Source: Elusimicrobiota bacterium (lineage in GTDB: Bacteria; Elusimicrobiota; Elusimicrobia; UBA1565). Taken from it: a stretch of 64,000 nt of DNA. The notes below the pieces were generated by a model, which ran no database searches, had not been told where the DNA came from, and saw nothing but the letters and a program-made list of their open reading frames with translations. Positions 38,042-44,033 of this stretch are shown here, one piece after another. The stretch's first letter is position 1. Every line of letters starts with the position of its first letter. The stretch is from the NCBI GenBank assembly GCA_043827405.1, contig JBDRPD010000060.1:1-64000 (forward strand). Direction: 5' to 3'. Made by a program: the position numbers and the translations under genes.

Positions 38042-38092
38042 CTTTCTCCCGCCGCGACGGACAAGCGGAAAATTTTTTGTAAAAAATAGGTC

Positions 38093-38120
38093 TTGACGTC
38101 CGGGGTTTTGGGGCTATACT
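38093..38120 (+). promoter_or_regulatory. Sigma70-type promoter with no downstream ORF
   Basis: TTGACG-N16-TATACT with an AT-rich UP-like tract at 38069-38088. Confidence 0.7.
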
Positions 38121-38125
38121 AAGAG

Positions 38126-38226
38126 TACCGCCGAGTAGGTGCCTGCAGTAAACATTCGGCGGTGGACTTGAGGGCGGGACAACGGTCGATATAAAACGAC
38201 GCCTGTTGTCACGCCCTCAACTTTTT
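38126..38226 (+). ncRNA. Candidate small RNA A (~100 nt, two hairpins)
   Basis: Promoter; stem 38127-38136/38154-38163; long stem 38168-38220; then CTTTTT; no ORF. Confidence 0.6.
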
Positions 38227-38236
38227 GCGGCAGAAA

Positions 38237-38713
38237 TTACGGGCCGAAGAAGAAGCCGGCGACCGCGCCGAGCACGCCGCCGATAGCAGCGCCTACCGGT
38301 CCGCCGAGAAGAAAGCCCAGACCGGCCCCGGCCAGAGCGCCGCCGGCCGCCCACCATAATCTCTTACCGCTCTTCTGCGTCTTGAGCTTATTATCCTTGG
38401 TCAGCGGATTGGGCGGTTCCTTAATGTTGCCCTTGTCGGGATCCCCGATAAAGAGGTCCGCCGTTGGGGTCTCCTGCGTACCCTTCACGGGCACAGATAC
38501 CAGCGGCGGCGACACCAAGGTACTGCCCTTGAGCCCCGCGGTATCCCAGCCTTCTCCTGACCGGCCACGAGCCTGGCTGTCGTCGGCCGCACGGGCTCCA
38601 TACCAGCTTTGGTCGGCGATACGCTGCAGATCGCTGCGCAGATTCGCCGTGGAGGCATGTCCCCATACAGCCGCTACGATAAGAATGAGCGCCGCGTGTT
38701 TCAACGCTTTCAT
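38237..38713 (-). CDS. Secreted/membrane protein with C-terminal glycine zipper
   Basis: Signal peptide; GGALAGAGLGFLLGGPVGAAIGGVLGAVAGFFFGP. Confidence 0.75.
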   Translation of the reverse strand: MKALKHAALILIVAAVWGHASTANLRSDLQRIADQSWYGARAADDSQARGRSGEGWDTAGLKGSTLVSPPLVSVPVKGTQETPTADLFIGDPDKGNIKEPPNPLTKDNKLKTQKSGKRLWWAAGGALAGAGLGFLLGGPVGAAIGGVLGAVAGFFFGP

Positions 38714-38835
38714 TACAAAAATTATACCGGGAGACCACCGAATGGATGGGGGACCATGGACCTAAAAAACCGGCGTAATCCGGCCTATGCGCAAAGGGCC
38801 GGAGGTCCCGCGCAGAAACATCTATTTTTTAAGGG

Positions 38836-38880
38836 AAAATTAAGAGGGCACCAGAGCTTTCCTCTTTAGCTCTCGTGCCC
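38836..38880 (-). terminator. Terminator of candidate RNA B
   Basis: Minus strand GGGCAC-g-AGAGCT-N9-AGCTCT-g-GTGCCC-TCTTAATTTT. Confidence 0.65.
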
Positions 38881-38975
38881 CCAGTACGGCGAACGACCGC
38901 GACGTACGATGAACAGTCACCGACGGGTACAAACCTCCCGCCGGGCCCTCGGCGGGTACGTCGAACGACAACGAA

Positions 38976-39116
38976 ACGAACGGCCACGCACGGCCACAAC
39001 CCGGCAAAGGCCACAAACGACCACGACCTGGCAACGGCCACGAACGGCCACAACCACGACCCGGCAACGACCACGAACGGCCACGACCCGGCAACAACCA
39101 CGAACAGCCACGACCC
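38976..39116. repeat. About five tandem 27-33 bp repeats built from 10-nt subunits
   Basis: GGCAA anchors at 39003, 39030, 39063, 39090; consensus ggcaacggccacgaacggccacgaccc. Confidence 0.9.
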
Positions 39117-39155
39117 ACGACGGAGACGACGAAGAACACGACGACCTACGGTGTT

Positions 39156-39183
39156 AGTATAAGCCGGTAACAGGATATGTCAA
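39156..39183 (-). promoter_or_regulatory. Near-consensus sigma70 promoter facing the repeat region
   Basis: Minus strand TTGACA (39183-39178)-N16-TATACT (39161-39156). Confidence 0.75.
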
Positions 39184-39197
39184 GGCCCAAAAACGAC

Positions 39198-39917
39198 TCA
39201 TTTCAGCCGCCAAACCGTATGCCATTGCGGGATGAGCCGAGCATGCTTGAGCCGCGCGCGTGCCTGAACGAGAAACTTGACGGCACGCTCCGGCTCGACG
39301 GGCAGACAGCGCTTTCCGGGAAATCTTGCGCTGACAACAGGCGTCGCCGGCTGCAAAACCAGCGGCATGGACGGCGCATTCGCCTCCATTAAGCGAATCA
39401 CCTTCAGCCATTCCGCGTCTGTCGTGCTCCGCGTCAGCACGACCTTGGCGAAGGCGCGCCGACCGGCCGCGCGCAGGAATTCCGCATGCGCTTTCCACAG
39501 GCTTTTACCGACGGCGGAGGGCAGCTTCAAGTCGACCGCGATCATGTCGAGCCACGGCAGCAGCCTCCGCAAAACGCCGACATGCACGCCGTTGGTCTCC
39601 AAGTAGTTCTTGAGCCCAAGCCGCCGCACCCGCGGCAAAACGGAATGGAGAAAATCCCCGCAGCGCAGCGGCTCCCCGCCCGTCCAGGCGACCGCCGCAT
39701 GCCGCCGCCGGCGATTATGGTCCTCCAGCACCGCGCACAGGCGCCGTGCGTCCCATTCTTCGCCGGAGTCCGCCGGCAGCGCCTTTGCCTCATCGCAGTA
39801 GTCGCAGCGCAGACCGCAGCCGCCGAAGCGAACAAATATCTGCCGCTCGCCAAGCCGCAATCCCTCGCCTTGCAGCGATGAAAATATCTCGCAGATCCGG
39901 GCGTGATCGCGCCTCAT
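39198..39917 (-). CDS. queE: 7-carboxy-7-deazaguanine synthase
   Basis: EIFSSLQGEG, FVRFGGCGLRCDYCD, TGGEP, LETNG, IPQWH; ATGA overlap with queC. Confidence 0.9.
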   Translation of the reverse strand: MRRDHARICEIFSSLQGEGLRLGERQIFVRFGGCGLRCDYCDEAKALPADSGEEWDARRLCAVLEDHNRRRRHAAVAWTGGEPLRCGDFLHSVLPRVRRLGLKNYLETNGVHVGVLRRLLPWLDMIAVDLKLPSAVGKSLWKAHAEFLRAAGRRAFAKVVLTRSTTDAEWLKVIRLMEANAPSMPLVLQPATPVVSARFPGKRCLPVEPERAVKFLVQARARLKHARLIPQWHTVWRLK

Positions 39918-41488: not shown

Positions 41489-42888
41489 CACAGCTCCCCC
41501 CATTCGTCGACGTCCGCGTTCTCGGCGTCACGGTAAAAACGCGCGGTGCAGATTCCTTTCAGCCCCTGGACGACCGCGAACAGCACTCCCGTCAGAACAG
41601 CCCACGACCATAGACCGCAGCCAAACAGCACGACCGCCAGCGGCGCCGTCCATTGAACCGGCTGACCCCGGGCAATCAGCGAACAGAAAAAAGCCAGGAC
41701 CGGCGCCGCGCATAAAAGCGCGAAGCGCAGATCAAACACTCCCAATCCCAAATGCGTGCGTTCCGCTTGCGCCGTCCCCAGCAAGTCGACGCTTCTCCTC
41801 AATGCCGGCACTACGCCCATATCCTCACAGGCCATGACGCTGGCAGCGAGATAGCCGCTGCGGAAAACTCCGCTCTCGAAGATGCGCTGAAACAGGCCCC
41901 CGGCTCGCCCCGCCCTGCCGCGCCGCAGGATGAGCCGGTAGACAAGACCCAGCGGCAGGAGCGCCGCGAACACAACAAACCATAACGCTATGACGCCCGG
42001 CACGAACGGCAGGCAAGCCGCCGCCGCATTGGCCTCCGGACGCCGCGCCAATGCCGCGGCGAGAAGCGCTCCCGGCAGGAAGGAACAGATGCCCACCACG
42101 AAGTAGGCTTTCACCCAGCCGCCGGAGACGTCGTAGAGCGGGCGGCCGAGCGTCAACGCGAGAATATCAAAGCCGTAGCCCGCGATGACCGCCGCACAGC
42201 ACAGCCACACAAACACGGTGACGGAAAAAAACAGTTTATGCCGCAGCAAAACTTCCCACGCGGCGCGCGCCCGCGCGCCCGCGCCGCCCTGCAGGTCAAA
42301 AACCGGCAGTCCCAGGACCGCCCAAGCCGTCACGACCGCCGGCAGGATTAAGAGCCATAGCCAGCGCGCCGTTCGTGCGAGGCGCCCGAAGAGCTTCGTT
42401 CGCGCCATTTTCACTCCGGAGGGCGGCGACGGAGGGCGGCTCGCCGGATTATGCTGTCGCTGCAAAGAGCGCTTGAGCGTCTCCGCCCCCTCCTTCACCG
42501 CCGGACTCGGCGCGAGAATGCCTCTTGCGGCCAAAGCATCCAGCCGGGCGAGCAGCTGATCAGGGACATCGCGCTGCCCCCAGGAGAAATAATCCGCCAG
42601 CGCGCGCATGGCGGGCGCCCGCACCCCGCCGTTCTCTTCCTCCTGGGCAACCGCGATCAAAGCGTCCAGCGCCGCGCCGTCGTCATGCTCGTTAAGCCGC
42701 ACGCCCAGGGCATGCACGATCCAGAAGCGCTGATCCGAATCCCGCGTCCGGCTGTAGAGCTCGGCGAGCTTCGCGGAAGCCGCGACCGATGGGTCGTCCT
42801 CCAGGCGGCGCAGCCCGTCAGCGCGCGCCGCGGGAACAGCGCTCAGCCAGAAGCCCAGGCCGAACAGCAGAAAGACGAGTCGGCTCAC
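41488..42888 (-). CDS. Hypothetical membrane protein (helical HEAT-like N-terminus, multi-TM C-terminus)
   Basis: Signal peptide; coupled by overlaps to rho and ridA. Confidence 0.7.
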   Translation of the reverse strand: MSRLVFLLFGLGFWLSAVPAARADGLRRLEDDPSVAASAKLAELYSRTRDSDQRFWIVHALGVRLNEHDDGAALDALIAVAQEEENGGVRAPAMRALADYFSWGQRDVPDQLLARLDALAARGILAPSPAVKEGAETLKRSLQRQHNPASRPPSPPSGVKMARTKLFGRLARTARWLWLLILPAVVTAWAVLGLPVFDLQGGAGARARAAWEVLLRHKLFFSVTVFVWLCCAAVIAGYGFDILALTLGRPLYDVSGGWVKAYFVVGICSFLPGALLAAALARRPEANAAAACLPFVPGVIALWFVVFAALLPLGLVYRLILRRGRAGRAGGLFQRIFESGVFRSGYLAASVMACEDMGVVPALRRSVDLLGTAQAERTHLGLGVFDLRFALLCAAPVLAFFCSLIARGQPVQWTAPLAVVLFGCGLWSWAVLTGVLFAVVQGLKGICTARFYRDAENADVDEWGEL

Positions 42889-44033
42889 ATCCCCCCTTGA
42901 ATCGCGTCCAACAGCAGCTCGTTAGTTGAGTATTTCCGCACCATCTCCACCACCACCTTGGTGGCTTCCAGGTCTGAAAGGCTCGCAAGTTTGCGCCGCA
43001 GCTTCCATACGCCGTCGAGCGTCTTCTCCGGCAGGAGCAGTTCTTCCCTGCGCGTTCCGGAACTTTTGACGTGTATCGCAGGAAACACCCGCTGCTCCGC
43101 CGCCGGCCGCGAGAGCACCAGCTCCATATTGCCGGTCCCTTTAAACTCCTGAAAGATCACTTCATCCATGCGGCTGTTGGTATCGATAAGGATCGTGGCC
43201 ATAATCGTAATCGATCCCCCCTCCTCCAGCTTGCGCGCACAGCCGAAAAAGCGCCGGGGCAGCTCCATCGCGCGCGAATCCAAACCGCCGGACAGCGTGC
43301 GCGTGCCTCCCGTCGCGGTATTATGCGCCCGCGCCAGACGCGTAAGCGAATCCAGCACAATAAGGACATCAACCCCGGCGACGGACTGTTCGACCGCCAG
43401 CTGATATACTTTATCCGCGGTGCTGATATGGGATTCGAAACCCTGGTCGCTTGAGGACGCGTGCACTTCGGCCTGGACCGCGCGACGGAAGTCGGTGACC
43501 TCTTCCGGCCGCTCATCGACCAGCAGGCAGTAGACTTTCATCTTCGGCTCGGCGCCGGTGACGGCGTTGCATATCTCTTTGAGGATCGTCGTCTTGCCGG
43601 CCTTGGGCGGCGATACGATCAATCCGCGCTGCCCCTTGCCCACCGGGGAGAGCAGATCCACCACCCTCATCGCCGCAGACGTCGGGCCGTTTTCCATGCG
43701 AATCCACTCAAACGGCGCGACCGGCGTCCTATCCAAAAACTGCTTCTCTGCCTCCGTGCGCTTCAGCGGCGCGATCTGCCGGTCGCCGCGGCCTTGGCCG
43801 CCGCGCCGCGGATATCCGCCGCGCCCGCCGTACCCGCCGCGCCCGCCCGAGCCACCGCGCCCGCCGGAACCACCGCGCCCGCCCTGGCCGCCATGTCCGC
43901 CCTGACCGCCTGGACCGCCGCGCTCCCGCTGTCCTCCGCCGCCTTGTCCGGAAAGTGATCCCTGGTCGTTATTTCCGTGGGCCGGTCCTCGGGAACCCGA
44001 GCGGCGCCGACGGCGCCTTGGTTTATTTCTCAT
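42885..44033 (-). CDS. rho: Atypical transcription termination factor Rho (ATPase domain plus RGG-rich N-terminus)
   Basis: [55 protein letters not shown]. Confidence 0.92.

Follow-up and report, generated by a model that had tools for sequence, protein, structure and literature searches.

A GU-rich repeat RNA of Elusimicrobiota with a CsrB-like layout, a member of a probably undescribed RNA family

Repeat-bearing decoy RNAs have led to global regulators before, CsrB to CsrA and CrcZ to Hfq. CsrB, CsrC and RsmX, Y and Z titrate CsrA and share a layout in which an own promoter is followed by a variable number of short sites and a terminator, with paralogs in one genome; their sites are many GGA motifs held in loops or single strands. 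CrcZ and CrcY, which titrate Hfq/Crc, are long and weakly structured and carry repeated A-rich short words. 6S RNA (~180-200 nt, with paired ends and a central bubble) binds the sigma-70 holoenzyme and templates a product RNA, while Y RNA goes with the Ro60/TROVE protein. To our knowledge, almost no regulatory RNA has been described in the phylum Elusimicrobiota.

Three further systems are relevant here. GcvB has an unstructured, GU-rich region, R1, whose targets are CA-rich repeats (PMC3879156). Bacteroides, which has no Hfq, ProQ or CsrA, makes multicopy sRNAs that associate with an RRM protein and act by pairing (PMC11697453, PMC13370968). In OLE RNA, a loop marked by a switch from GGCC to GAUC forms a symmetric kissing interaction seen by cryo-EM (PMC12286853).

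The window, a 64,000-nt stretch of an Elusimicrobiota genome, carries on its minus strand a real ncRNA unit of about 314 nt, a GU-repeat RNA that has the stand-alone promoter, repeated sites and terminator of the Csr/Rsm layout. Like those RNAs it has short sites in varying number and paralogs; unlike them, it uses a CGU-based word rather than GGA, the sole conserved GGA lies in its end loop, and CsrA was found in none of the 23 genomes of the two RNA-bearing families (0/1 own, 0/16 in the same family, f1, and 0/6 in the sister family, f3) and in 1/78 genomes of family f2, or 1/101 in the order. With CrcZ/CrcY it shares a long, weakly structured RNA and repeated short words, but it is A-poor where they are A-rich, and Hfq was over the cut-off in 0/101 genomes of the order, with two weak sub-threshold matches. 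The unstructured GU-rich region resembles that of GcvB, yet it exceeds the GcvB region several-fold in length, consists of repeats and varies in size; Hfq is absent and the complement is not enriched in leaders predicted from a rough gene set (PMC3879156). FopS/GibS with RbpB in Bacteroides are likewise multicopy, with a single-stranded 5' part, a terminator, an RRM protein and no Hfq, CsrA or ProQ; FopS, however, is 65-70 nt long and has one conserved seed and no array, whereas here there is no Rfam match and RRM does not track the RNA (PMC11697453). A palindromic loop with GGCC to GAUC covariation recalls OLE, ROOL and GOLLD, from which our RNA differs in being much shorter, without a large ornate conserved structure and without an Rfam match (PMC12286853). 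Searches for 6S (RF00013) found it in 0/101 genomes of the order, and Ro60/TROVE and ProQ were absent from a search of the own genome (98% complete). Membership of the Csr, CrcZ, 6S or Y RNA families was thus rejected on GGA, CsrA, Hfq, paired ends and bubble, and Ro60.

The first-pass annotation could name no family for this RNA, and Rfam 15 bears this out: there was no match at the gathering threshold over the whole window, three chance-level matches at E 10 over 38050-39220, and only a tRNA and one chance match over 14 homolog loci. A housekeeping RNA in disguise was rejected, since the genome has its tmRNA, its RNase P and a weak SRP candidate at other loci. In the literature surveyed, mostly open-access main texts, no such RNA is described in Elusimicrobiota; a large motif catalogue may nonetheless list it. 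Overall, this is a real, conserved and probably undescribed RNA family. The features of the unit and its neighbours are as follows.

39198-39917, minus strand: queE-like radical SAM gene, last in the upstream run; its stop lies 15 nt before the RNA promoter
39156-39183, minus strand: sigma-70-type promoter, -35 TTGACA at 39183-39178 and -10 TATACT at 39161-39156
38836-39149, minus strand: predicted non-coding transcript of ~314 nt, with the start placed from the -10 box and RNA contigs over 38864-39088
38962-39146, minus strand: GU-rich tract with one A, 27/33-nt repeats and 16 G(A/C/U)CGU words in 38964-39149 (from composition, TRF and fold)
38982-39109, minus strand: five 14-nt units GGYYG-UNYG-UGGYY (at 39109, 39082, 39049, 39022 and 38995) with UUGCCRGG linkers
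38900-38963, minus strand: 3' domain closed by CGACGUAC/GUACGUCG in the predicted fold, lineage-local
38937-38956, minus strand: middle hairpin CCCGCCG/CGGCGGG with the palindrome GGGCCC (38948-38943), a candidate symmetric kissing loop
38908-38921, minus strand: GGUGA/UCAUC hairpin of the predicted fold; three changes, one of them pair-breaking, in a relative's RNA contigs
38844-38882, minus strand: end hairpin 'type A', 7-8 bp, a G.G mismatch (38874/38852), 6 bp and a 9-nt loop with GAGGA (38864-38860)
38836-38843, minus strand: U-rich tail UUAAUUUU, a weak terminator run; homologs also have U-rich tails
38237-38713, minus strand: gene for a 158-aa protein with a signal-like N terminus and a glycine-zipper-like C terminus, with its own TATAAT before the ATG

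The unit sits between the queC-queE run and the 158-aa gene, the latter facing mutL. The near-consensus promoter that had been proposed for it (TTGACA-16-TATACT, 39183-39156) scores 11/12 in a promoter scan; the surrounding 3-kb region holds 3 promoter-like sites against 0.5 in shuffles, and there are 20 sites of the TTGAC-TATACT form genome-wide. A like promoter lies upstream of each intact homolog hairpin. These observations, together with the covarying 3' hairpin described below, support an independent transcription unit as the first-pass annotation had it. A role as leader or attenuator of the downstream 158-aa gene was rejected, because the RNA is inverted or placed elsewhere in relatives and the gene has its own -10 box; with a TATAAT just before its ATG, the gene is independent of the RNA. 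This glycine-zipper-like gene (38237-38726, minus strand) has the TATAAT 8 nt before the ATG and is apparently leaderless; it is flanked by both RNAs of the region (the second is described below), and a like arrangement is found downstream of several homologs.

RNA libraries contain the unit. Five RNA runs from two sediment studies matched 14-15% of the sampled words of the stretch. Contigs from three of these runs (one study; 283, 292, 185 and 105 nt, ~95% alike) lie within 38864-39086 and have extra repeat copies, and no other contig of these three runs falls on the 2.1-kb stretch around the unit. A fourth run yielded pieces over 38918-39088, plus two short error-free queE pieces, and the lone A of the tract is G in all four runs. 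The runs were selected using the same stretch, so that contig cover there is partly by choice; the contigs leave the sister RNA and the RNA's first 60 nt uncovered, which is no evidence of absence. A metatranscriptome had been named as the place to look for a minus-strand transcript, and contigs of two studies now cover 38864-39088, but they speak to presence and carry no strand, ends or level. They do settle the concern that the repeats might be an assembly artefact: the relative's RNA differs in repeat copy number, which rules this out.

The same repeats could also be read as a low-complexity peptide gene on either strand (PGRGRSW or HDPATTTNG repeats). Both strands hold open frames of 64-99 aa, and periods of 27/33 nt do not shift the frame, so that the earlier argument for a non-coding RNA, a subunit that is not a multiple of three, fails here when this genome is taken alone. 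However, five frames of the locus have no Pfam match, this RNA has no SD plus start, no start or peptide is common to 24 homologs, stops interrupt all three sense frames in several homologs, and homolog periods of 28, 34, 25, 32, 41 and 50 break the frame, from which it follows that the RNA is non-coding. The peptide-gene reading is largely refuted and is now extremely improbable, and we hold with high confidence that the 38836-39149 unit is a non-coding RNA.

The claim of a single A in about 185 nt agrees with the base count (G75 U65 C44 A1 on the minus strand of 38962-39146, the lone plus-strand T being 39029). Only one other 185-nt stretch with at most one A on a strand exists in the 4.33-Mb genome, and no window of the genome is richer in CGT than the tract (26 per 200 nt vs a mean of 3.2 and a next best of 17). 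TRF recovers periods of 27 (4.8 copies), 33 (3.2), 60 and, weakly, 10. The described 27/33-nt repeats are therefore present, but their proposed 10-nt subunit is not the motif of the family, in which periods differ and the common word is 5-7 nt long. Nor is freedom from adenine a defining trait: homolog bodies are 4-18% A, so this genome is the extreme and not the rule.

What homologs have in common is a repeated G(U/C)NGU(U/C)G word. The de-duplicated set holds 21 RNAs, to which three with diverged hairpins were added (24) for period and loop counts. CGU occurs 386 times in the bodies against 118 expected from base shuffling, in the contexts GUCGU, GCCGU, GACGU and UUCGU, and CU is strongly avoided (98 observed vs 302 expected). 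Relative to dinucleotide shuffles, G(A/C/U)CGU is 2.5-fold enriched, in 21/21 bodies, and GYNGUYG is enriched 2.4-fold in type A bodies and 2.8-fold in the long RNAs of the type B family introduced below. G recurs at lags 3 and 6 in type A bodies and the signal is lost by lag 9-12, which points to a local 6-7-nt word and not to a reading frame. Arrays expand and contract freely, with tandem periods of 27/33, 21, 28/34/68, 25/54, 32, 41 and 50 across homologs and of 14 and 13/26 in type B; these are independent expansions of one vocabulary. Some homologs have very few words, the 98-nt and the 124-nt RNA having four CGU. Neither the tract (z -0.6; whole RNA z -1.2) nor the bodies (median z +0.6) fold better than shuffles, as expected for single-stranded sites. 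Of the five 14-nt units, four could fold into weak 4-bp hairpins that tolerate C/U swaps, since either base pairs with G. The bodies of the f3-type homologs L007, L011 and L088 contain another repeated hairpin, GCUGCCAAGCGGUGCAGC-like, in 1-3 copies beside or replacing the CGU array.

The 3' end is structured, as had been proposed. The predicted fold of the last 130 nt (z -3.4) shows the CGACGUAC/GUACGUCG helix, CCGCCG/CGGCGG, GGUGA/UCAUC and the end hairpin, and a C-to-U change in the closing helix of the relative leaves a G.U pair. Part of the proposal does not extend to relatives: the GGUGA/UCAUC hairpin loses one pair in the 95%-identical relative and is probably not conserved. The middle hairpin (CCCGCY/GGCGGG) is found in 16/24 homologs, with the loops GGGCCC in 4, AGGCCU in 2, GGAUCC in 1, GGGCCU in 2, a GGCC core in 2 and non-palindromic sequences in 5. 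A 6-nt palindrome thus occurs in 7 of the 16 loops (three variants) and a palindromic core in 11. When 8-nt loops of such make-up are drawn at random, 33% contain a 4-nt palindrome and 7% one of 6 nt; these figures are for independent draws, and the rows here are related. Given this chance of ~7% per draw, the palindromic loop is taken as a hint of dimerisation only.

The end hairpin is conserved. In 16 aligned rows (alignment A4), 6/13 pairs show compensatory change and 0/500 shuffles reach the score, which related rows inflate; all 12 non-mismatch pairs form in 16/16 rows, against 42-61% paired in slid controls. The sole unpaired position is the G.G mismatch, seen in 15/16 rows and replaced by C-G in one. 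The GAGGA loop is invariant in the 16 rows, which were chosen partly by the GAGGA word, and copies in the g2 genomes, located by position, keep GGA independently of that selection. Stem covariation had been suggested as a check; the 3' hairpin is real and covaries, but the terminator scan missed it (9-nt loop, G.G mismatch, weak U run). The first-pass annotation overlooked three features: the GAGGA loop and its invariance, the palindromic loop, and the family of the sister RNA.

The full cassette is present in 14/16 genomes of f1 and in 2/6 of f3. A blastn search over 41 genomes gave matches in 13, and inspection of 14 distinct relative loci found the full cassette in 8, the other 6 being promoter-only or chance-like matches. 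Model R1, a covariance model of the type A end hairpin, matched 11/16 f1 and 2/6 f3 genomes and, weakly, 13/78 f2 genomes; the f2 matches (at most 29 bits) were rejected as type A and are other hairpins or type B. Among the five f1 genomes missed by R1, three, all of genus g2, have the RNA in inverted orientation downstream of queE; its stem is rewritten there, and its loop reads GAGGA (two) or CGGA (one, where the contig stops inside the RNA). In the other two the contig stops at queE. An exact-pattern scan with one genome per species gave 29 loci, and 11/11 of those in Elusimicrobia/Elusimicrobiota have a clean hairpin and an upstream promoter; no promoter lay within 800 nt in the 16 listed of the remaining 18. 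A loose pattern matched 15 of 401 genomes of the phylum, and the matches listed from outside the family have neither promoter nor hairpin. In metagenomes 32 loci were found, and 13 of the 29 listed have hairpin and promoter, with one more starting inside the tract. Viral contigs held 0 exact pattern matches, and the own genome has no second type A copy.

Homologs are 98-390 nt long, plus one gapped copy of ~550 nt, and the end hairpin persists in the shortest, preceded by only 61-87 nt. Their neighbours vary: queE is frequent, sometimes with a small Cys-rich gene between, and genes for SAM hydroxide adenosyltransferase, Sir2, MFS, ECF sigma, cyclophilin and phosphate acetyltransferase also occur, which indicates that the RNA unit moves independently of flanking genes. 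The Cys-rich protein between queE and the RNA is ~100 aa long in several relatives (for example L071:2675-2977, minus strand) and has no Pfam or NCBIfam match; in the own genome it is located elsewhere (G000:C50:87103-87381).

A second RNA, 'type B', lies 600 nt from the type A RNA on the opposite strand.

38093-38120, plus strand: sister RNA promoter TTGACG-16-TATACT, from the promoter scan
38127-38228, plus strand: sister RNA 'type B', ~102 nt, with a 5' hairpin, a long terminal hairpin with a GUCG/CGAC apical stem, and a U run

This RNA folds well (z -4.6 over 102 nt), and has a paralog in the own genome (G000:C25:61395-61459, in the locus G000:C25:61395-61533, minus strand, which has its own promoter) and several copies in genus g11. 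In its end hairpin 11/17 pairs covary, and type B RNAs have no Rfam match. Model R2 at E <=0.001 matched 73/101 genomes of the order, one of them through a type A hairpin only and two weakly, i.e. ~70/101; among 150 phylum genomes, weak matches (at most 23 bits) occurred in 2 genomes outside the order. Type B hairpins of f2 end RNAs of ~180-340 nt, many of them next to queE or mutL. The long bodies of these RNAs have a long closing stem and form a predicted rod (median z -2.9), and one f2 RNA shows a 14-nt expansion of GCCGUUCGU peculiar to it. Other type B RNAs consist of a bare hairpin of 62 nt without an array. The lower stems of types A and B can be nearly identical, and R2 gives two type A hairpins 32 bits; a profile of long type B bodies scores at most 11 bits on type A bodies, with no match for this RNA, so that body homology is not established and a common origin of the two types is inferred rather than proven. 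In one case, the sole one seen, an RRM gene and a long type B RNA are divergently arranged (L247:1164-1993, G039:C63).

With moderate confidence we favour a multivalent protein-titrating RNA, CsrB-like in its working and not a CsrB member; the sponge or scaffold reading of the first-pass annotation thus remains the best model. A strongly promoted, stand-alone RNA would present many single-stranded words with a CGU core (consensus ~G-Y-N-G-U-Y-G), each a putative docking point for a single RNA-binding protein or domain, which the RNA would titrate or scaffold as CsrB does CsrA. Word copy number may tune capacity, and low A would be a by-product of tandem copying of an A-poor word. The end hairpin may both terminate and protect the RNA and, through the GAGGA loop, offer a second docking site, while the palindromic middle loop may dimerise two molecules. 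First partner candidates are the cold-shock, RRM and KhpA/B proteins, for which the own genome has 5 matches, 3 matches, and 1 match over the cut-off plus 1 below it, respectively. RRM genes were not found in 5/14 RNA-bearing relatives, two of these 97-100% complete, which argues against RRM as an obligatory partner; RRM was accordingly rejected in that role, since it does not track the RNA and the G039 neighbour is a single case. A broader proposal is tentative and on balance doubtful: that modular RNAs, each a CGU-word array with one of two related end hairpins, in up to several copies per genome and some dimerising, titrate a new class of RNA-binding regulator, and so constitute a global layer of post-transcriptional control, so far undescribed, in one Elusimicrobiota order where CsrA, Hfq and 6S are essentially not found.

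Several other explanations bear on the same observations. An unstructured GU-rich tract might pair with C/A-rich mRNA elements, making this a multi-target base-pairing sRNA like GcvB R1, which is unstructured, GU-rich and aimed at CA-rich repeats (PMC3879156). Copies that differ by C/U swaps would still pair with a G in the partner, and FopS, Hfq-independent and multicopy with a single-stranded 5' part and a terminator, is comparable (PMC11697453). This is nonetheless unlikely in view of the missing Hfq, the lack of a conserved long seed, an array size that varies several-fold and the outcome of the pairing tests. In predicted leaders, taken from a rough set of 3516 genes with starts from a rough gene caller, the word's complement is not enriched (ratio 0.7-1.3); pairing of the body with the sister RNA shows no excess in 7/7 genome pairs (z -1.5 to +1.5), and the GAGGA loop pairs with the body no better than with shuffles. 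The word itself is 1.4-1.7-fold enriched in leaders and 1.3-1.6-fold downstream of genes. This leader enrichment was rejected as evidence, because regions downstream of genes show it equally and part of it falls in frame 0; no set of mRNA targets of the partner is visible. The RNA might instead act through its hairpins (the GAGGA and palindromic loops), with the GU array a tolerated, slippage-grown spacer. The shortest homologs retain the end hairpin behind so little sequence, the RNA contigs reveal copy-number change at strain level, and the few words of the 98- and 124-nt RNAs, with the array-less 62-nt type B hairpins, suggest that the hairpin may be the main function. To this reading too we give a low probability, because the word is enriched in distant lineages and with both hairpin types, even where no tandem repeat is detectable, and because slippage alone does not predict the avoidance of CU.

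The loop variants are what a purely RNA-based multimer or condensate scaffold would build on, kissing loops and degenerate G-C/G.U pairing between arrays joining the molecules; OLE makes the same GGCC-to-GAUC switch in its symmetric kissing loop (PMC12286853). It is very unlikely here, where the hairpin is missing from 8/24 homologs and non-palindromic in 5/16, random loops can be palindromic by chance and the rows are related, and no ornate conserved fold is seen. Even less credence is due to a divergent 6S stand-in that binds RNA polymerase: the order's lack of 6S and the rod-like f2 type B RNAs with their long closing stem would suit it, but the ends of the type A RNA are unpaired, it lacks a central bubble flanked by two helices, its length varies four-fold, and there is no 6S score even at E 10.

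Under the favoured protein-titrating model, a conserved transcribed family with a different word is a bait, and a pull-down with the array could name the substitute RNA-binding regulator. The type A and type B hairpins give two new covariance models, natural variants from 62 to ~400 nt separate array function from hairpin function, and the rod-like long type B RNAs of f2 are worth testing as a 6S stand-in.

Some further features of the genome were seen along the way. The tRNA set called by ARAGORN in the own genome has tRNA-Arg with the anticodons GCG and UCG and none with ACG, which is either real or an assembly gap. A second rho gene lies in the window (42885-44033, minus strand), its primary RNA-binding domain replaced by a Gly/Arg-rich repeat tail, and the canonical rho is at G000:C3:42277-43728. 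Strong promoters at G000:C63:14958 (minus strand) and G000:C10:14190 (plus strand) lead into GC-rich leaders without an obvious start, which are possible further small RNAs or riboswitches.
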